Virus record (IMG/VR): IMGVR_UViG_3300044846_003573
Direction: 5' to 3' (one strand)
DNA: 64,000 nt
Source: a virus
Lineage: Duplodnaviria > Caudoviricetes
The number at the start of each line of letters is the position of its first letter. The first letter of the stretch is position 1. Below the pieces are notes generated by a model. It was not told the origin of the DNA and ran no database searches. It saw only the letters and a program-made list of their open reading frames with translations. The position numbers and the translations under genes are program-made. Shown here piece by piece: positions 39,428 to 56,233 of the stretch.

Positions 39428-39502
39428 GAGGTATATTACTTTTTTACTTTAAAAGGTTCATCGTAATGATGAACTTTTTTTTTGTTACAATATTTATTAT
39501 TA

Positions 39503-40906
39503 ATGAAAAAGATAATTTCCGAAGGTGGTATCAGAAACATAAGAGAACTTTCTGATAGATACAAAAAAGCAAAGATATACTTCCACCAAGATTTAGATGG
39601 TGTTGCAACTGCATTAGCGATGAAAAAGTATTTGGAAGACAACGGAATCAAAGTTGTTGATGTTGAAGTAATCCAATACGGAGATAAGGAATTCGCGGTT
39701 AAGAAAGCAGATGCTGAAGGTGAAATCATGCCAGTTCTTGTTGACTTTGCTCACGGAAAACCAATGTTCGTGGTTCATACTGACCACCACGATAGACAAG
39801 CCGGAGCTGACGAAACTAAGTCAACTCAGTTCAGAGGGGCTCGTTCAAATGTTGAAACTCTTTCACAGATTGTCCCGGCTTCTGAAATTTTCACACCAGA
39901 AGATGTTGCGACAATATCTATGGTTGATAGTGCTGATTATGCTTCAAAAAACATTACACCTGAAATGGTGATGAATTATGTGTATGGGACATCAAAAGAA
40001 AAGAGTGCTAAAGAAAATAGAATGTTATTAGGTTTGGTTACCAACAAATTATTGTTGGCTTTCAAAAGTAAACCAGGATTTTTAGAGACATTAGTATTAG
40101 ATTGTAAACCTTCACTTCTTTCAATCTTCAATAAGATTAAGGAATTAATGAAGACAAACAGATATGCTGATATATCTTCATTAGAGAAAAACAAAGAAGA
40201 TTACGTTCAGACAATGAAAGGACATAAGAATGTTCAGGTTAAAGATAATATCATCGTTCAGTATGGTGGTGGTAGTATGATGAGACCTGGTTCGTATGAC
40301 AGATACACCCCATTTAGAAACAACCCTGAAGCTGACTTTTTAGTTATTGCTTGGCCACTTGGTTTATTACAGGCATCATGTAACCCTTTTAAAAAAGAAA
40401 GAGAACTTAAAGGTGTTAACTTGGGAGAAATTGCTCAAGAAGTATTGGGACATTGGGAATCACAATTAAAAGAAAAACAAGTCCCATTATCAACAATCAA
40501 GTGGGTTTCTGAAACTGCTGCGAAAGAAGAATCAGTTGGATTTACCTTTAAGGATTTTGCTGCAATATACGGAGACAAATACTTGGATGAGAAAGATGGT
40601 GTTAAAACACTTATGGATATTAAATCTTTGATGGAAAAAAAATCATCTGAATTGACCGAAGAAGAATGGAGTGTGTTAGATGGTGTTACTGTTCCAGTAT
40701 GGGAAGTTATCCAAGCTAATTCAGGTGGACACAAGTGTATTACAAATGTATCTGGTTTAAATTATATTGGAAGAAGTAAGAGACCACCACAAGGTAAGTA
40801 CAAGTACGATTCTGAAAAAGAAGATTCACCTTATATTAAGTTCTTAAAGATGTTACAGAATAGATTTGTGAATGTTTTACAACAGAAGATTGAGGAAAGT
40901 AAGTAA
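39503..40906 (+). CDS. DHH-family phosphoesterase-like protein
   Basis: HQDLDG, LVDFAH, TDHH, C-terminal GGHK. Confidence 0.7.
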   Translation: MKKIISEGGIRNIRELSDRYKKAKIYFHQDLDGVATALAMKKYLEDNGIKVVDVEVIQYGDKEFAVKKADAEGEIMPVLVDFAHGKPMFVVHTDHHDRQAGADETKSTQFRGARSNVETLSQIVPASEIFTPEDVATISMVDSADYASKNITPEMVMNYVYGTSKEKSAKENRMLLGLVTNKLLLAFKSKPGFLETLVLDCKPSLLSIFNKIKELMKTNRYADISSLEKNKEDYVQTMKGHKNVQVKDNIIVQYGGGSMMRPGSYDRYTPFRNNPEADFLVIAWPLGLLQASCNPFKKERELKGVNLGEIAQEVLGHWESQLKEKQVPLSTIKWVSETAAKEESVGFTFKDFAAIYGDKYLDEKDGVKTLMDIKSLMEKKSSELTEEEWSVLDGVTVPVWEVIQANSGGHKCITNVSGLNYIGRSKRPPQGKYKYDSEKEDSPYIKFLKMLQNRFVNVLQQKIEESK

Positions 40907-40907
40907 T

Positions 40908-41255
40908 TTATTTAAAGAACTCACAAACTTGTCCTTCTCTGATACCTAAATCTTCACAGGTACCACCTTCAAGTTCTAATACATACATTCCTTTACCTAC
41001 AAACCTTTCACAAGGTTGAACCTTACATGGTTCACAGTAGTGATGTATTTTATTGATTTTAAAGTTCTTATCAATAAAGATAATGTCTAAAGGGATGATA
41101 CAATTCATCATCCAAAAACTATGTGAACCATCACCCATGATGAACAACATACCGTCAAAATCGTCAAAAGTCTTGTTCATCATACCTTGACTGGTCTCAG
41201 AACTTTCAATTAACACTTTGACATTGAAACTATTTTTATTTATTTTTAACAACAT
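40908..41255 (-). CDS. DUF192-family protein
   Basis: GMM....DGMLF......FWMMNC.IPLDIIFID, YVLELEGG. Confidence 0.85.
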   Translation of the reverse strand: MLLKINKNSFNVKVLIESSETSQGMMNKTFDDFDGMLFIMGDGSHSFWMMNCIIPLDIIFIDKNFKINKIHHYCEPCKVQPCERFVGKGMYVLELEGGTCEDLGIREGQVCEFFK

Positions 41256-41275
41256 ACTTATTAATAAATATTTCT

Positions 41276-41686
41276 ATGAAACAAAGTGCAGGAATTATTG
41301 TGAAAGTAAATGATAAATGTTTGGTTTGTAAGAGAACTGCTGAGATTAATGAACCATCAAAGTGGGCAATACCTATGGGTGGAATAGAAGAAGGTGAAGA
41401 CCCAAAGGATGCTGCGTATAGAGAGTTCTATGAGGAGATGGGTGTTCCAGTTGAAGAAGATATTAAACCTTTGGGTAAAATTAATCGTTATAACAAATTA
41501 GGTGGAATAAAAACTATTCTACATGTGTTCCTTTTAAAGACTGATACCAAAATCATTCCTGATTTAGAGAATGCTATGGACGGTTTTGAACACACAGAAT
41601 GTGCGTACATGACTTTAGAAGAAATTAAAAAACTTAATATGTCATCAGGTATTAAGGAAGTTTTAACTGATGTGTTAAATTTTTGA
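41276..41686 (+). CDS. NUDIX hydrolase
   Basis: Nudix box GGIEEGEDPKDAAYREFYEEMG. Confidence 0.92.
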   Translation: MKQSAGIIVKVNDKCLVCKRTAEINEPSKWAIPMGGIEEGEDPKDAAYREFYEEMGVPVEEDIKPLGKINRYNKLGGIKTILHVFLLKTDTKIIPDLENAMDGFEHTECAYMTLEEIKKLNMSSGIKEVLTDVLNF

Positions 41687-41704
41687 TTTTTTTGATATAT
41701 TTAT

Positions 41705-41837
41705 TTGACACTACGGAATATTCGCTGTAAGTTTGTAAAAGATTTAACACTTATAGGAAATGAAAGATACTCGGTAGTTAAATCAAAAAAAAAGTTCACA
41801 AACTACTTGACAGAAAGAAAAAAAAGTCGTAAGTTTG
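41705..41837 (+). promoter_or_regulatory. tandem promoters P1/P2 (TTGAC-N18-TAAGTTTG)
   Basis: TTGAC 41705 / TAAGTTTG 41728 and TTGAC 41807 / TAAGTTTG 41830, identical spacing. Confidence 0.75.
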
Positions 41838-41846
41838 TAAAACAAA

Positions 41847-41874
41847 TCGGAAATGTCCGAGACGTTCTTTGAAA
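41847..41874 (+). promoter_or_regulatory. boxB-like hairpin plus boxA-like antitermination element
   Basis: tcgga-aatg-tccga hairpin followed by GTTCTTTGAAA. Confidence 0.55.
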
Positions 41875-41879
41875 CAAAA

Positions 41880-42757
41880 AGATTATCCATTCTCTGAGTA
41901 AGTCGTATTCCCGCCTTCGTGTGACGAATATGAGCACTGAAAAGAGATAAACGATAATGGGCCGTGTATGGTCCTTAAATAAACTACGAAAGTAGGATAA
42001 AGTGGTCTCCCCCGTGTTGAGGAGACTGCGGTTTGAAACCCCGTAAGGGGAATTGAACTCAAGTACACAAGTGGGGTATCACCAAACCTTTAGTACCGAG
42101 GATAACTTCGTAGGGAGAATGGTAGGGTGACCTGGCAAAGTAGATTGTCAGGTTGAGTTCGGAAGAACGATAAGAATAACCCATAGGAACTCTGTAAGAA
42201 ATGTGACCATCCAGTTACACAATTGCGGGTCCCAATATGATAGAGGACTTAAAACCGAAAGGTAAGATGGAGAACGAGTGGTGTCGCTACTATCCCTAAG
42301 GAAGACCTACCAAGGTCTCTTTATGAAGTAATCTTGAAATATGGAGGTGGGGACACTTCACGGAGTAGTTTAGTATTCTGTCGCTCAAAAGGAGACAGAG
42401 CTTATGTTGGACCACTACTCTGACACATCTACAACACAACCCTAAAATTATTACAAAATAACAAAGGAAAAGTGTCCATCAGGTTTGAGTGAAAGGTGAC
42501 TACATAGTAATGAGCCGTTCATTGCATACAGAGACCCCAAGTCAATGTGTATTGTTAAGAAAAACCTTTAGTCCCGCAAGGACGAACTGGGGTGGCAACC
42601 TCGGAAAGAGTTAAGTATTGATAGAGTAATTCAAACCTCAAGGAGTGGTACACCTAAAATACCGTCACTAAGAAATACTACCCAAAAGGTGGTGGATAAG
42701 AAGGGAAACAATAATCCTTCAAAAGTTTCTTAACATAAGCTGTAATCTCAGGCTTTT
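41880..42757 (+). ncRNA. large (~870 nt) highly structured RNA, GOLLD-like
   Basis: no credible ORF; GC-richer than flanks; many hairpins (ctac-gaaa-gtag, cccc-gtaa-gggg, acc-gaaa-ggt, gtctcc/ggagac, tctgtc/gacaga); own promoters and terminator; size, phage and tRNA context fit GOLLD. Confidence 0.7.
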
Positions 42758-42765
42758 CTAATTTG

Positions 42766-42789
42766 ACCTGTCAATTGACGGGTTTTTTT
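42766..42789 (+). terminator. intrinsic terminator of the large RNA
   Basis: acctgtc-aatt-gacgggt followed by a T run. Confidence 0.75.
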
Positions 42790-42810
42790 ATTTATAGACA
42801 CTTATAAACT

Positions 42811-43035
42811 ATGACAATATTAGAAAATCTTAAAGAGGTATTACCATCATGGGCGGTGGTAAAACAAAAGGAACTACCATATAAGATGGAGTATGAGATT
42901 AGACTTCAACCTACTTTGGATGAGGATGAACATTTTGCTTTAACACCAAAACTTAAGGAAGCTTGTCAGGGTAAGTTTATGGAAAGATACACTGTAGATA
43001 TTGGTGAACACTTTTATATTTATACAAAAAAGTAA
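42811..43035 (+). CDS. hypothetical protein
   Basis: ORF track. Confidence 0.65.
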   Translation: MTILENLKEVLPSWAVVKQKELPYKMEYEIRLQPTLDEDEHFALTPKLKEACQGKFMERYTVDIGEHFYIYTKK

Positions 43036-43037
43036 TC

Positions 43038-43223
43038 ATGATACCTAAAGAGATTAAAGAATTAGTTAACAAATACCCAAACAATTATGAATTGGGTGAG
43101 GAAGTTAGAAAATATTATCACAAAAATAAACAGAAAGAAAATTTTAATTCTGGTGTTCTGTGGATAGGAATTTTATTCTTTTTTATATTTGCTTCACTCT
43201 TGACTTGGATTATAACCGTTTAA
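43038..43223 (+). CDS. small C-terminally anchored membrane protein
   Basis: C-terminal TM. Confidence 0.6.
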   Translation: MIPKEIKELVNKYPNNYELGEEVRKYYHKNKQKENFNSGVLWIGILFFFIFASLLTWIITV

Positions 43224-43263
43224 TTTCCTGACTTTAAACATATTTATAATAAAATTATAAATT

Positions 43264-44097
43264 ATGTTACTAAAAGTTGGGTCTAAAGGAGAAGACGTTA
43301 AAAAACTCCAAGCAAAATTAGGTACCACCGCTGATGGAAGTTTCGGTCCTGGTACAGAAAAACTGGTTAAAGAATGGCAATCGGATAACGGACTAACAGC
43401 TGACGGTATCGTTGGTGATGGTACTTGGTCTAAGATGTTCCCAACAACTCAACCAGTTCAAGTGGTTAAAGAAGATGTTGTTATCCCGACAAGTTCTGAG
43501 TTTAAATTACAAAATCTAAAAGGACATGTTCCTGACGCAGTAATTGCTCAAATCCCTGAAACTGCTAAAAAATTCAATATTACTAACCCATTAAGATTAG
43601 CTCATTTCTTGGCTCAGTGTGGACACGAGTCAGGTGGGTTTAAAGCTGTTTCTGAGAACCTTAACTATTCTGCTGACGGACTTAAGAAAATCTTTGGTAA
43701 GTATTTCCCTGGTAACTTAAATGAGTCATACGCTCGTCAACCTGAAAAGATTGCTTCACGTGTTTATGGAAGTAGAATGGGTAATGGTGATGAGTCAACA
43801 GGTGAAGGTTTCAAGTTCCGTGGAAGAGGTTACATCCAATTAACTGGTAAGAATAACTATACAAACTTCGCTAAGTTCATTGGTGAAGATACTGTGTCTA
43901 ATCCTGATTTAGTTGCAACCAAATATCCTTTGGCATCTGCGGCGTTCTTCTTTGATTCAAATAAACTTTGGTCAATCTGTGATAAGGGTGCAGATGTTGC
44001 AACGGTCACGGCAGTTACCAAGAGAGTTAATGGTGGTACGATAGGTCTACCAGATAGAATAAAACACTTCAACGAGTATTATAACCTACTTAAATAA
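43264..44097 (+). CDS. endolysin: peptidoglycan-binding domain plus GH19 lysozyme/chitinase
   Basis: GSKGEDVKKLQ..ADGSFGPGT..ADGIVG; AHFLAQCGHESGGF, ENLNYS, FRGRGYIQLTGK.NY, VNGG. Confidence 0.92.
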   Translation: MLLKVGSKGEDVKKLQAKLGTTADGSFGPGTEKLVKEWQSDNGLTADGIVGDGTWSKMFPTTQPVQVVKEDVVIPTSSEFKLQNLKGHVPDAVIAQIPETAKKFNITNPLRLAHFLAQCGHESGGFKAVSENLNYSADGLKKIFGKYFPGNLNESYARQPEKIASRVYGSRMGNGDESTGEGFKFRGRGYIQLTGKNNYTNFAKFIGEDTVSNPDLVATKYPLASAAFFFDSNKLWSICDKGADVATVTAVTKRVNGGTIGLPDRIKHFNEYYNLLK

Positions 44098-44185: not shown

Positions 44186-45238
44186 ATGAAAAAAATCAAA
44201 TTATTTCTCTTAACTCTTTTTGCATTCATTGGAATGAGTGCATCATCACAAGTATTAACGTCTTTTAACGTTGATATAATTAACCTCGGAGGATGTCCAT
44301 ACACATTGTTCGGAAACTATTATGGAGGTGGTATTCAAGGTAGTATTACTTTAACACAACAACCTACAGGAAGTTATGTTGCAGTTGTACCAGCAATTGA
44401 TAGTCTAAATGTTAGTATCTGTGCAATTTATACTTCACCATGTTTAGGTGAGACTTGTATAAATGAAACAATATATCTTGGGTCAGGACAAGGTGTTCAG
44501 ACATTTACGATAGTACTTCAAAACCAAGACTCAGATTTTGATGGGTTCATGGATAACATTGACTGTAATCCATTTGACCCATATATCTATCCAGGTGCAC
44601 CTGAACTATGTTATGACGGTATTGATAACAACTGTGATGGTTTAATTGAGGCAATGCCGACAATTGATACTCTGTACTTTGTTCCTGATTCACTTGTATC
44701 TGAACCAAACACTATTTACGTGGTTTACCAAGGTTCAAATACTGTAGAATGGGAATGGTTTTTTGGAAATGGAGGAAATGGGACGAGTTCAAACGAACAA
44801 TACCCAACCATTACATTCCCTACCTCAACGTTTACTTCACAAATGCTCCCGATTAACTTATACGCAATTTCCATTAATGGTTGTCAGGTTTATACTTCAA
44901 TAAACTTTTCAATTGATAGTAATGGAGTTTGGACACCGGGTGGAATTTTAAATGATTATACCTTAAACGTTGTTCCTGAATTTATAATTGGGGTTGAAGA
45001 AACAATGACTAATAACGTTAAAGTTTGGCCAAACCCTGTGTTAGGTGTTGTTAATATTAATACACCTTCAAATAGTGGGATGTTAAGAATTATGTCTATC
45101 GACGGAAGATGTGTCTATCAAGAAAAATATTTAACTAACAACATTCAGTTTGATTCTGAAATATTAAGTGACGGAACCTACGTTATTACTCTTACTGACG
45201 ATAGTGGTAAGTTTTATACAACAAGAATTATTAAATAA
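44186..45238 (+). CDS. T9SS type A CTD cargo protein with Asp/Cys metal-binding motif and PKD-like domain
   Basis: signal peptide; DSDFDGF..DCN....[17 protein letters not shown]; WEWFFGNG; CTD VWPNP...GTYVI...RIIK. Confidence 0.85.
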
Positions 45239-52315: not shown

Positions 52316-52324
52316 GTTCTTTGA
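52316..52324 (+). promoter_or_regulatory. boxA-like element
   Basis: GTTCTTTGA at the start of the tRNA run; also at 41864 and 56396. Confidence 0.5.
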
Positions 52325-52338
52325 CGTATTGGGAAAAT

Positions 52339-52410
52339 GGTGATGTAGCTCAGAGGGAGAGCATCTGATTGTTAATCAGAGGGTCGGGATTTCGAAATTC
52401 CCCATCACCG
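52339..52410 (+). tRNA. trnN: tRNA-Asn(GTT)
   Basis: cloverleaf, loop tt-GTT-aa. Confidence 0.9.
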
Positions 52411-52420
52411 CAAAAATAAT

Positions 52421-52495
52421 GACTTCGTAGCTCAGCTGGTTTAGAGCACCTCACTTTTAATGAGGGAGTCGTGGGTTCGAGTCCCACCGGGGTCA
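52421..52495 (+). tRNA. trnK: tRNA-Lys(TTT)
   Basis: cloverleaf, loop ct-TTT-aa. Confidence 0.92.
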
Positions 52496-52571
52496 CTTTT
52501 TTAATTAGGTGGTAAAACATACGTTCAGGTGAACTTTACTAATTTTTCTGATATTTATTAATAAATGAATT

Positions 52572-53030
52572 ATGAAATTATCAGGAGTAACAAAAGAACA
52601 AATGTTTGAAGTATTATCTTCATCAAAATCAATGAGAGAAGTTATTCTTTCATTTGGATTACAACCTAATGGTTCCGGGGGATATCGGAACATTAAACGA
52701 AAAATAATGGAACTTGGGTTAGAAATCCCAAAGTATAATTACTTTGGTGAGGGTTCTAAAAAAAGAAGACATAATGATGAAAATGTTTTTTGTGAGAATT
52801 CTCAGTTTCCAAGACAACATCTTAAAAAAAGAATTATTAATAATAAAATAATTGATTATATATGCGAAAAATGTAATAATAGTGGGCAATGGGAGGGAAA
52901 TGATTTATCATTACATTTAGACCATAAGAATGGTATAAATGACGATAATAGAATTGAAAATCTGAGATTTCTTTGTCCTAATTGTCATTCACAAACCCCG
53001 ACATATGCGGGTAAATCAAGGAAAAAATAA
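52572..53030 (+). mobile_element. HNH homing endonuclease inserted between tRNAs
   Basis: CEKC..LHLDHKNG..DDNRIENLRFLCPNCHSQT; own TATTTAT motif. Confidence 0.9.
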
Positions 53031-53034
53031 ACAC

Positions 53035-53106
53035 ACGTCTGTAGCTCAGGGGCAGAGCACTTCTCTCCAAAAGAAGGTGTCGGGATTTCGAAATTCTCCA
53101 GACGTG
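53035..53106 (+). tRNA. trnW: tRNA-Trp(CCA)
   Basis: cloverleaf, loop ct-CCA-aa. Confidence 0.9.
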
Positions 53107-53112
53107 CAACAA

Positions 53113-53186
53113 GCCTCCATAGCTCAGCAGGTCAGAGCGACTGATTTGTAATCAGTAGGTCGTTGGTTCGATTCCGACTGGAGGCT
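53113..53186 (+). tRNA. trnT: tRNA-Thr(TGT)
   Basis: cloverleaf, loop tt-TGT-aa. Confidence 0.92.
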
Positions 53187-53193
53187 CTAACAT

Positions 53194-53268
53194 TCTCACG
53201 TAGCTCAGTTGGTTTAGAGTTTTTGACTGATATTCAAAAGGTCGTTGGTTCGATTCCAACCGTGAGAA
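53194..53268 (+). tRNA. trnI: tRNA-Ile(GAT)
   Basis: cloverleaf, loop ct-GAT-at. Confidence 0.88.
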
Positions 53269-53276
53269 CTTAAAAA

Positions 53277-53353
53277 CGAGTAGTTGGGGAGTCCGGTTAC
53301 CCCGCTTGCTTTGGGAGCAAGAGAACTCGCAGGTTCGAATCCTGCCTACTCGA
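53277..53353 (+). tRNA. trnP: tRNA-Pro(TGG)
   Basis: cloverleaf, loop tt-TGG-ga. Confidence 0.9.
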
Positions 53354-53360
53354 CTATGAT

Positions 53361-53435
53361 GGGGGTGCATGTACCAAGGCTTGGCGAGAAACACTTGCAA
53401 TGTTTCTGAGGTCGTTTCGATTACGACCATCTCCA
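53361..53435 (+). tRNA. trnA: tRNA-Ala(TGC), atypical D arm
   Basis: loop ct-TGC-aa; G3:U70 present. Confidence 0.8.
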
Positions 53436-53441
53436 CAACTT

Positions 53442-53515
53442 AGCCCCTTAGCTCAGTGGTTTAGAGCGATTGTCTTACAAACAATAGGTCGTGTGTTCGA
53501 TTCACACAGGGGCTA
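53442..53515 (+). tRNA. trnV: tRNA-Val(TAC)
   Basis: cloverleaf, loop ct-TAC-aa. Confidence 0.92.
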
Positions 53516-53588
53516 CATTAATCCGGTATAAATCAGTATTATTTTTACCGGAACAACAAAAAAGTTTGTATATTAGCAAACGAAATAT

Positions 53589-53661
53589 GGAGCGGTTACC
53601 AACGTGGTCAAGGTGAACGACTGAAAATCGTTTTATGAGAGTTCGATTCTCTCCCGCTCCA
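53589..53661 (+). tRNA. trnF: tRNA-Phe(GAA)
   Basis: cloverleaf, loop ct-GAA-aa. Confidence 0.88.
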
Positions 53662-53662
53662 C

Positions 53663-53815
53663 GAGGTCCTGAATTGACAGGACAACCCCCACCTCCGATA
53701 TGGCAGTCGGTCCGTTAATCCGACGAAGATGGGGTTTTTAAAAAGTGTCTCGGTACGCTCTGACGAAAGTCAACGACGAGGTCTCGGTGGACAGAAGGCC
53801 TCTGATTCCACCCAA
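53663..53815 (+). ncRNA. unidentified structured RNA(s) including an H-type pseudoknot
   Basis: gtcctg/caggac, aacccc/ggggtt, gtcgg/ccgac, tgac-gaaa-gtca; pseudoknot gaggtc/ggcctc plus ggtgga/tccacc (53778-53812). Confidence 0.5.
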
Positions 53816-53818
53816 ACT

Positions 53819-53894
53819 GCGGGTGTCGTATAACGGCTTATTATGACTGGCTTCCAACCAGTAGACGGGGTTTCGATTACCCCCACCCGCTCCA
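53819..53894 (+). tRNA. trnG: tRNA-Gly(TCC), CCA encoded
   Basis: loop ct-TCC-aa. Confidence 0.88.
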
Positions 53895-53899
53895 TATAC

Positions 53900-53986
53900 G
53901 GTCACGGCGCATAACGGCTGTTGCGCTACCCTGTCACGGTAGTAAGTAGGTAAACGAAAAAGTGGGTTCGACTCCCATCGTGACCG
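53900..53986 (+). tRNA. trnD: tRNA-Asp(GTC) with ~19-nt variable region
   Basis: loop ct-GTC-ac; unstructured A-rich expanded variable loop. Confidence 0.75.
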
Positions 53987-54053
53987 CAGGAAAAAAGAAT
54001 ATCACGGGTTCGATTTTAATGAAACCCGTGATATTTATAATAAAAGGAATGAT

Positions 54054-54875
54054 ATGAACAAGTGTTTGAATTGTGGAAAACCAGTGAAAAATAAATACTG
54101 CAATGTTTCTTGTCAAAATACTCATACTTGGACTGGAAAAAAACGGAAAAAAGAAAGTATTGAGAGACAAAAAGAATCTAATAAAAATCTATGGAAAGAA
54201 TTTGATGTTGAATGTTCGGTTTGTGGTAAGGAGTTTAAAATAAAAGAATTTAATGTTGAGTCCCCCAAAAAAGAAAAATACTATTGTGGTAGGTCTTGTG
54301 CAAATAAAAGAGTTTGGGATAGTCAACATAAAGAAAAATTAAGTAATATTTGTAAGAACTCTGATAAGGTAATTAGTGCTAATCGTGAAATTGGTAAAAA
54401 GAAAAAAGAAAAATCAATTAAAATTAAAAAAGGTGATTGTCTTTATTGTGGTGAGGCGTTGTATAAATCAAAAAAATATCATTCGGAATGTTGGTTGAAA
54501 TGTTCAGGGGGTATTAAAGAAGGTACAAGTCGAGGTAAATCAGGATGGTATAAGGGATATTGGTGTGATAGTAGTTATGAGTTGGCTTGGATTATCTATC
54601 AGATAGATAACGGACAAAAATTTGAAAGGAATAAAGAAGGGTTTGACTACACACACTCAAACAAAACTCGTAAATTTTATCCTGATTTTATATTACCTGA
54701 TAAAACTTATGTTGAAATTAAAAATTATAAGTCAGAATTAACTGATGATAAAATAAAACACTTCCCACATAAAATTGAGGTGATTTATAAAGAAGAAATG
54801 AAAGAAAAATATTTACCATACGTTACTTCAAAGTACGGTAAAAATTTTATATCATTATATCATAAAGAGGAGTAA
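54054..54875 (+). mobile_element. putative homing endonuclease (zinc-finger repeats plus PD-(D/E)xK/TnsA-N-like domain)
   Basis: CLNC..YCNVSC, YCGRSC; CDSSYE...FYPDFIL...YVEIK; own TATTTAT motif. Confidence 0.75.
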
Positions 54876-54921
54876 CTTGCGTAGGTGCCTCAGGGGACTG
54901 CAGCCCCACTACGCTCCATAT

Positions 54922-54992
54922 TGTCCTGTAGTGAAATGGCATCACACAACATTTTGGATGTTGTATTTCTGGTTCGAGTCCAGACGGGATAA
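54922..54992 (+). tRNA. trnQ: tRNA-Gln(TTG)
   Basis: loop tt-TTG-ga. Confidence 0.88.
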
Positions 54993-55034
54993 CTATTTTT
55001 TGTTTTATTAATAAACTTACCTTATCTTTGTATT

Positions 55035-55469
55035 ATGAAAAAAGAATTTGTTACATACGAAATTGCTTCGGAACTCAAGAAACTTGGATTTGATGAACCT
55101 TGTTTTGGCAGATATGACGGAAGAGGTAAAAACAAAGGTAAAATTTGGTATGAAATGCCAAATTCAGGACAAGATACTATTCCTGTTGGTGATGTATTAG
55201 CACCACTATACCAACAGGTATTCAGATGGTTTGAAGAGAAGTATTCATACTTTGTGGATGTTAAAACTGACACCACACCAAATGAGATTTTGGGATTTGA
55301 TTATTATATCAAGAGTTGGAAGTTTGGACCAAAATATTTTAATTTCTTCAAAGAAAAGGAAGAAGGTAACATTAAGGTTATCAAGATAATGATTGAGATG
55401 GTGAAGAAAGAGAAACAAAAGGAAGCTCTTATTGAGTTGATGGATAATGATAAAGATTTAGATAAATAA
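55035..55469 (+). CDS. hypothetical protein
   Basis: ELKKLGFDEPC...APLYQQVFRWF pattern; TATCTTTG upstream. Confidence 0.7.
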   Translation: MKKEFVTYEIASELKKLGFDEPCFGRYDGRGKNKGKIWYEMPNSGQDTIPVGDVLAPLYQQVFRWFEEKYSYFVDVKTDTTPNEILGFDYYIKSWKFGPKYFNFFKEKEEGNIKVIKIMIEMVKKEKQKEALIELMDNDKDLDK

Positions 55470-55470
55470 T

Positions 55471-55776
55471 ATGACACAGAAACAACAAGACGCAATTGAT
55501 AACATAATGGACTACTTCAAGTTTGAACAAGTCCGAAAAGTAATGGAAGTGTTGAATTGGGAGTGGGCGGCTTCTGACGAAGGTATTCCAACGGTTCCTG
55601 AATTGAGACAAGAAGCAAGACGATTATTAAAGATGGCGTTTAAAGAAAAAACAGATGTATCAACAGGTGGGTTCCACGTAAGATATGAATCGGACGCTGA
55701 TGGTGGAGAGTTTATTCAATTAATCTTCGCGGTTGAAGAATGGTACGAAGATGTGGAAAAAGATTTGGTTGAATAA
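55471..55776 (+). CDS. hypothetical protein
   Basis: ORF track. Confidence 0.7.
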   Translation: MTQKQQDAIDNIMDYFKFEQVRKVMEVLNWEWAASDEGIPTVPELRQEARRLLKMAFKEKTDVSTGGFHVRYESDADGGEFIQLIFAVEEWYEDVEKDLVE

Positions 55777-55783
55777 GAAAAAC

Positions 55784-55846
55784 ATGGCATCAGGTATTGT
55801 AATTGGAATCTTCATAGGATGGTTAATATGGGGAAGAGAAGAATAA
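55784..55846 (+). CDS. 20 aa hydrophobic micro-peptide MASGIVIGIFIGWLIWGREE
   Basis: manual translation. Confidence 0.4.
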   Translation: MASGIVIGIFIGWLIWGREE

Positions 55847-55847
55847 A

Positions 55848-55895
55848 AAAAGATTTGGTGGAATAAGAAAGTTGTTATATCTTTGTTGAAGTTCA
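55848..55895 (+). repeat. repeated promoter module (copy 2 at 56352-56399)
   Basis: AAAAAGATTTGGTGGAAT-n13-TATCTTTGTTGAAGTTC at both sites. Confidence 0.75.
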
Positions 55896-55922
55896 TTAAG
55901 AGATAAATAAAATAATTAGTAT

Positions 55923-56129
55923 ATGCAACATTCGGTAAAAGAAATTGCCAAAAGATACTCAGAATTGTCTGACCTCAGAAAAGATAAAAAAAGATTTGTT
56001 GAATCTAATTTTATCCAATTTGCAAAGGACAATCAACGTAAGTATACCCTTACTGAAAATGGGGATGACTTGATGGTTAGCACTTGGCATTCAAATGACT
56101 TGATTGAAGATTACCGAAAAACGTTGTAA
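55923..56129 (+). CDS. hypothetical protein
   Basis: ORF track. Confidence 0.65.
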   Translation: MQHSVKEIAKRYSELSDLRKDKKRFVESNFIQFAKDNQRKYTLTENGDDLMVSTWHSNDLIEDYRKTL

Positions 56130-56135
56130 AAAAAT

Positions 56136-56226
56136 AGTCAGGTGGACGTAATGAGGGAGGGACCCAAATCCGTAAGGTTGTCTAATCCGTCAAGAACGGT
56201 ATCCGGTTCGAGTCCGGCCCTGACTA
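56136..56226 (+). ncRNA. tRNA-like RNA, AGTCAGG family copy A
   Basis: acceptor agtcagg/cctgact-A, T arm ccgg-ttcgagt-ccgg, variable-arm-like ccgt/acgg; no canonical anticodon arm. Confidence 0.7.
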
Positions 56227-56233
56227 CTAATAT

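Follow-up and report, generated by a model that had tools for sequence, protein, structure and literature searches.

Positions 41705-42790 (plus strand) of the window, by which we mean the whole 64-kb stretch of phage DNA that was analysed, hold a self-contained non-coding RNA gene. No ORF of more than 61 amino acids overlaps positions 41705-42789, and the sequence contains hairpins capped by GNRA loops, for example CTAC-GAAA-GTAG, CCCC-GTAA-GGGG and CCC-GCAA-GGA. An earlier sequence-only reading of the same DNA had described about 870 nt of ORF-free sequence with such hairpins at this place, and this stretch is indeed present. A cmscan analysis with all 4227 Rfam families resulted in one non-tRNA match, RF02032 (GOLLD), at 42361-42754, with a score of 321.7 bits (gathering score: 150 bits; E = 2.5e-91) and an alignment to all 416 positions of the model (1-416). 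The GOLLD family had previously been guessed from size, context and similarity, and the comparison with the large-RNA models of Rfam bears this guess out, with a match over the full model and no competing family. The Rfam model covers the conserved 3' domain only and the 5' half lies outside it; leader and 5' domain matched no other Rfam family, even at E-values up to 1.

The locus therefore truly belongs to GOLLD, a known family of giant phage RNAs that was reportedly described by Weinberg et al. in 2009. The "lake-derived" in the name of this already known family is exactly the habitat here. It is hardly conceivable that the locus belongs to another class of large RNA, be it group I/II introns, ROOL or a class not yet described, or that it is a degraded coding region: RF02032 is the sole match and spans its full length, nothing else is recognised in the leader and the 5' domain, longer ORFs are missing, and the substitutions are compensatory changes of the RNA type. 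ROOL is comparable as another large and ornate RNA that is carried by phages or prophages close to tRNAs and builds a cage from RNA alone (PMC12286853), but the window contains no ROOL match, and the two RNAs are unrelated in sequence and fold.

The Rfam-modelled 3' domain (42361-42754, plus strand) includes an A-rich, G-poor linker at 42421-42476 (A28 C12 G5 T11), which aligns, with deletions, to the unpaired linker of the RF02032 model. An anchor of 24 letters, taken from the 3' domain, was used to fetch relatives from IMG/VR and resulted in more than 115 loci (L005-L119). For the 5' domain (41881-42360, plus strand), window positions 41873-42369 were aligned with 30 diverse relatives (alignment A2, 31 loci in total) and analysed with RNAalifold. 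This resulted in 110 predicted pairs, 71 of them with compensatory changes, defined as at least one sequence in which both sides have changed and pairing is kept. The conserved core of the 5' domain starts at about 41946 and is preceded by helix P1, in which ATTATC and TTCTCT (41882-41898) pair with AGAGA...GATAAT (41943-41958). The helix is kept with different letters depending on the sequence class (ATTATC/GATAAT, AATATC/GATATT or AGATCTT/AAGATC) and encloses a hypervariable insert at about 41899-41942. Because helix P1 precedes the core and the RF02032 match ends at 42754, we place the RNA body at about 41881-42754, which corresponds to roughly 875 nt. It is followed by an intrinsic terminator (42765-42790, plus strand), a hairpin with an 8-bp stem (42765-42784) and a run of seven T, as the sequence-only reading had noticed. 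The terminator has a folding energy of -11.1 kcal/mol (z = -4.2), and a hairpin with a T-run likewise stands downstream of GOLLD in 54 of 70 unique relatives.

The insert in helix P1 (window 41899-41942) behaves as a swappable cassette. In a comparison of seven loci (L006, L026, L055, L091, L093, L097 and L059), three unrelated inserts of 74, 51 and 36 nt were found on GOLLD bodies 94-98 % identical to that of the window, while the window's own insert (98 % identical) occurs in L059, the body of which is only 89 % identical. A further candidate pairing, between ATTATCC in the leader and GGATAA in the 3' domain, was rejected despite its fit to some classes: it is broken in L022, L067, L092, L058 and L096, and GGATA is kept even where the leader lacks the motif. 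ATTATC pairs locally with GATAAT in helix P1 rather than with the 3' domain.

Two promoters of the same design, TTGAC-N18-TAAGTTTG, are located upstream of the RNA body on the plus strand, at 41705-41735 (promoter P1; -33 element TTGACA at 41705-41710, -7 element TAAGTTTG at 41728-41735) and at 41807-41837 (promoter P2). Both lie where they had been noticed before, with the identical spacing that had been claimed for them, and promoter P1 is conserved in G001, the record nearest to the window. In the 64-kb window, the 14-mer GTAAGTTTGTAAAA is found at these two promoters and nowhere else. Both are of the Bacteroidota type (-33 TTG, -7 TAnnTTTG) and not classical sigma-70 promoters, which explains why a generic sigma-70 scan called neither of them. 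The -7 element TAnnTTTG is the consensus of the Bacteroidota sigma-A (PMC9723704), and the pattern TTG-N17-23-TAnnTTTG is found 25 times on the plus strand and 8 times on the minus strand of the window. As the -7 box spans -12 to -5, the start sites are inferred to lie near 41740 (promoter P1) and 41842 (promoter P2). Among 70 unique related loci, a Bacteroidota-type promoter lies no more than 260 nt upstream of boxA (see below) in 68; it ends 24-28 nt before boxA in 53, and two or more promoters in tandem are present in 21. Directly 5' of the -33 TTGACA, positions 41791-41806 consist of an A-run followed by GTTCACAAA(C/G)TAC; this element is kept in many GOLLD loci and could be an UP-like element or the site of a regulator.

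Between promoter P2 and the RNA body, a short hairpin (41847-41860, plus strand) precedes boxA, at a place like that of boxB in rrn leaders. In 28 distinct leaders, 92 % of the cells are paired and four of six pairs show compensatory changes, with stem variants such as CGG/CCG, CAGG/CCUG and UUGG/CCAA. The covariation score of 0.354 compares with 0.135 after shuffling, and none of 500 shuffles reached it. The boxB-like hairpin of the sequence-only reading is thus present and covaries. A second hairpin, module A (41741-41784, plus strand; -7.9 kcal/mol, z = -2.3), has the outer stem GATTTAAC/GTTAAATC and a loop that holds ATGAAAGATACTCGG. With a changed outer stem it recurs in L015, L017, L018, L068, L087 and others. 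Module A combines an invariant loop, ATGAAAGATACTCGG, with a covarying outer stem and occurs as a single copy in the window; in other phages it is found directly before boxA in place of the short hairpin. No Rfam family matched module A.

The boxA-like element itself, GTTCTTTGA, is located at 41864-41872 (plus strand), 26 nt after the -7 box of promoter P2 and 8 nt before helix P1, and confirms the motif proposed earlier. It is followed by a conserved A-rich spacer and by ATTATCC, the 5' strand of helix P1; a GT-rich boxC was not recognised there. The 9-mer occurs seven times in the 64 kb, compared to 1.06 expected copies, and none of 100 shuffles reached seven. Its position relative to the RNA is strongly conserved: GTTCTTT[GA]A is found 736-813 nt before the 3'-domain anchor in 95 of the 97 lake-phage GOLLD loci with at least 1 kb of upstream sequence, at a background rate of 0.061 per kb in the same loci. 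The distance in the window is 776 nt. In a second sub-clade, comprising 14 loci in which the anchor has one different letter, 13 carry GTTCTTTGA or one of the one-letter variants GTTCTTTAA and GTTCTTTGT at the equivalent place. Altogether, 3 of 111 IMG/VR GOLLD loci show no boxA. The survey covers the lake-phage clades only.

The surroundings of boxA vary. Some loci have a protein gene upstream and others a tRNA; two unrelated hairpin modules alternate before boxA among the relatives, and insertions occur as well, for example in G001. In LR745206, a 634-kb phage, the order is tRNA, hairpin, GTTCTTTGA and GOLLD, and no boxA is recognisable upstream of GOLLD in LR756502. The copy in the latter phage (L241, positions 1922-2410) scores 275 bits and has a tRNA within 10 nt downstream.

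The same 9-mer heads the rRNA operons of Bacteroidota. We fetched rrn operons by a 5' signature of the 16S gene and obtained 101 leaders; a few of the fetched loci are not Bacteroidota by title. The exact sequence GTTCTTT[GA]A is present 59-280 nt before the 16S anchor in 48 of them, and about 25 further leaders contain the one-letter variants GTTCATTGA or GATCTTTGA. Many of these host leaders show a TAnnTTTG promoter, a short hairpin and boxA in that order.

Furthermore, boxA stands before tRNA genes of these phages. Within the window, a second intergenic copy (52316-52324, plus strand) precedes the tRNA array, 23 nt upstream of its first gene, tRNA-Asn, and a third one (56396-56404, plus strand) heads another small-RNA run, 5 nt after a TTG-N20-TATCTTTG promoter at 56360-56390. 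Across 70 phage loci, 11 of 94 boxA-like sites outside GOLLD lie 16-30 nt before a tRNA on the same strand; as a control, a tRNA was found within 150 nt for 24 of 2800 random positions. A boxA before the first tRNA of a run was also seen in L018, L023, L036, L042, L068, L078, L087, L088, L097 and L100. Judging from these arrangements, the phages appear to use boxA for all their stable-RNA operons.

Since boxA is invariant, covariation cannot separate a protein site from an RNA contact. We also considered that GTTCTTTGA is not a Nus site at all and instead makes a tertiary or processing contact within GOLLD, or is the target of a phage factor, its likeness to the rrn element being a coincidence or a result of convergence. 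The invariance of the motif and its position 8 nt from helix P1 would fit such a role, as would two loci of the second sub-clade (L251 and L253) that lack helix P1 and in which boxA directly adjoins the first conserved hairpin. Against this speaks that the 9-mer also heads phage tRNA genes and host-phylum rrn operons, both of which lack GOLLD, and that the motif stays while the leader around it is swapped freely, be it the hairpin module or the upstream tRNA or protein gene. No conserved complement of the motif was found within GOLLD, and the sole candidate for a 5'-3' pairing, that of leader and 3' domain, failed on covariation. We regard this explanation as unlikely and favour a role of the element as a boxA.

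The phage itself is an uncultivated freshwater phage and, as related GOLLDs are found on viral contigs of 274-304 kb, probably a jumbo phage of roughly 290 kb. The closest record is G001, an IMG/VR contig of 110.5 kb (rated 38 % complete) with a GOLLD of 321.5 bits that is 98 % identical to that of the window from 41946 onwards. A search for near-identical sequences in cultured and deposited phages gave no match, and a search for distant relatives resulted only in two huge uncultured phages of 634 kb (LR745206) and 642 kb (LR756502). The GOLLD anchor was found in none of 185,579 prokaryote species genomes and RF02032 in none of 151 sampled Bacteroidota genomes; the clade was seen only on viral contigs (up to 304 kb) and not in the cellular genomes searched, so that the host cannot be read from prophages.

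Three features of the sequence indicate that the host is probably a member of the Bacteroidota: the -7 boxes of the form TAnnTTTG, the occurrence of the promoter pattern (25 times on the plus and 8 times on the minus strand) and a type IX secretion sorting domain. The latter forms the C-terminus of a protein encoded at 44186-45238, which also has a MopE-type metal-binding motif (sorting domain: Por_Secre_tail PF18962, 39.2 bits, cut-off 27) and serves as a marker for a Bacteroidota host. The window also contains 21 tRNA genes (52339-63034), in an array that starts 9.6 kb downstream of GOLLD. For one of them, at 57489-57576, the Rfam model for tRNA-Sec (48 bits, cut-off 47) and ARAGORN, which called a tRNA-Ser(UGA), disagree; it is probably an ordinary tRNA-Ser with a long arm.

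The upstream neighbour of the RNA gene encodes a NUDIX hydrolase (41276-41686; PF00293, 73.8 bits). Window positions 39482-41686 represent the region of those genes that are commonest upstream of GOLLD in the relatives, namely those for a 474-aa protein, present in 29 of 70 loci, for a minus-strand DUF192 protein (27 of 70) and for the NUDIX hydrolase (18 of 70). With 29 of 70 loci as the best value, none of the neighbours is generally conserved. The 474-aa protein gave only sub-threshold DHH/RecJ-like matches and no relative in the PDB. It is speculation that these upstream neighbours are linked to the processing of the 5' end of the RNA.

Downstream, a lysis cassette follows on the plus strand, consisting of two small ORFs (42811-43223) and an endolysin (43264-44097; phrog_181, E = 2.5e-68) in which PG_binding_1 and GH19 domains are combined. 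As this cassette begins 20 nt past the terminator on the same strand, and GOLLD was reported to rise during lysis (PMC12286853), the RNA might be a long cis-acting leader of the lysis genes and not a free-standing product. This is highly improbable, because a strong intrinsic terminator separates the two, the downstream genes vary among the relatives (the commonest cluster is found in 27 of 70 loci, endolysin-like genes in 16 of 70), GOLLD is followed by a tRNA in LR756502, and the GOLLD with a solved structure is an autonomous RNA particle (PMC12286853). The arrangement is in better agreement with a stand-alone RNA gene.

Sequences of this RNA are also found in environmental RNA libraries. 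In 18 RNA runs, which stem from at least 15 studies of fresh water, 31-42 % of the sampled words were present, and contigs assembled from RNA libraries of four of these runs, each from a different study, cover positions 41976-42755; some of these contigs show 0-1 differences over 239 nt. Near-identical GOLLD sequence is thus present in RNA libraries, and the contigs speak to its presence, not to ends, strand or level. While the body reaches summed depths of 10^2 to 10^4, the contigs leave 41000-41900 and 42800-43500 almost bare. Neither this gap in the flanks and the leader nor the contig depth is evidence of transcript ends, processing or level; the flanks are also less conserved among strains.

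Bacterial rrn leaders, as known from E. coli, combine tandem promoters with a boxB-boxA-boxC arrangement and direct an anti-termination that depends on NusB, NusE, NusA and NusG. From work on E. coli rrn operons and on phages, the boxA-Nus system is known to make elongation fast and resistant to Rho. Anti-termination of the rrn type is not known to override intrinsic terminators. The GOLLD locus resembles an rrn leader of the E. coli type in its tandem promoters, in the order of hairpin and boxA before a long structured untranslated RNA, in the position of boxA just after the start site, with letters identical to the Bacteroidota rrn boxA, and in the intrinsic terminator that ends the unit. 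It differs in its product, which is a phage RNA and not rRNA, and in lacking a recognised boxC and a leader-trailer processing stem, which was not found at this locus. The rrn-style design that the sequence-only reading had proposed is supported by the Bacteroidota 9-mer as boxA, the fixed site in 95 of 97 loci, the covarying hairpin and the tandem promoters of 21 of 70 loci. In the window and in about 100 lake-phage relatives, the leader repeats the promoter, hairpin and boxA that the likely hosts, Bacteroidota, place before their rRNA genes. In the literature searched, to which the 2009 discovery paper did not belong, we found nothing that links GOLLD with boxA, anti-termination or an rrn-mimic leader; new here is the quantified survey of the leaders together with their match to host rrn leaders.

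Taken together, these results point to a stand-alone GOLLD gene of about 875 nt in a Bacteroidota phage, with host-type promoters and boxA-directed expression, a reading to which we assign a probability of about 75 %. According to this model, the host RNA polymerase with sigma-A would start at the two tandem host-type promoters, and the first 20-40 nt of the transcript would contain the small hairpin and then the boxA (GUUCUUUGA) that heads the rRNA operons of the host phylum. By analogy with rrn operons, boxA in the nascent RNA may bring in NusB-S10 of the host together with its partner Nus factors, and the polymerase would turn Rho-resistant and processive across the long untranslated RNA. 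Such anti-termination would protect an RNA of about 0.9 kb, the A/C-rich and G-poor linker of which (42421-42476) resembles a Rho loading site. As rrn-type anti-termination is not known to act on intrinsic terminators, transcription would still end at 42765-42790. The RNA is then predicted to fold into separate 5' and 3' domains and, by homology, to form a multimeric cage. Given that the GOLLD and tRNA operons share the promoter and boxA design, the sequence argues for GOLLD being part of a stable-RNA or translation-related programme of the phage.

Compared with GOLLD as known so far, the RNA of the window agrees in its full-length match to the conserved 3' domain, its length, a 5' domain of about 480 nt that is structured though more variable, the A-rich linker between the domains and its origin from a phage in a lake sample with tRNA genes in the same genome region. 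Differences are that no tRNA lies inside or adjoins the RNA here, the array being 9.6 kb away, that helix P1 contains a swappable insert and that an rrn-type leader is present outside the Rfam model. By cryo-EM, the env-38 GOLLD was found to be a 14-mer cage of D7 symmetry in which the 5' and 3' domains are separate (Kretsch et al., 2025; PMC12286853). Cage formation is likewise expected for the present RNA, as an extrapolation from env-38, the one solved member.

GOLLD is among the largest bacterial and phage RNAs without a known function. Its structure was solved in 2025, but the mode and timing of its synthesis have received little attention. The present analysis indicates that the GOLLD genes of lake phages are built like miniature rRNA operons, with a host promoter, a covarying hairpin, a host boxA, a structured RNA and an intrinsic terminator. 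The design is shared with phage tRNA operons, which leads to a testable model of expression and predicts a host from the Bacteroidota. As a long shot, the rrn-mimic leader might even be what defines a lake-phage GOLLD: either the speed and the RNA-chaperone activity of the host NusB/S10/Nus complex would be needed for folding and cage assembly, or GOLLD would imitate rRNA and in this way withdraw the Nus machinery and ribosomal proteins from the making of host ribosomes. If true, either version, Nus-assisted assembly or rRNA look-alike, would fit a report that ribosomes are pulled down together with GOLLD (PMC12286853).
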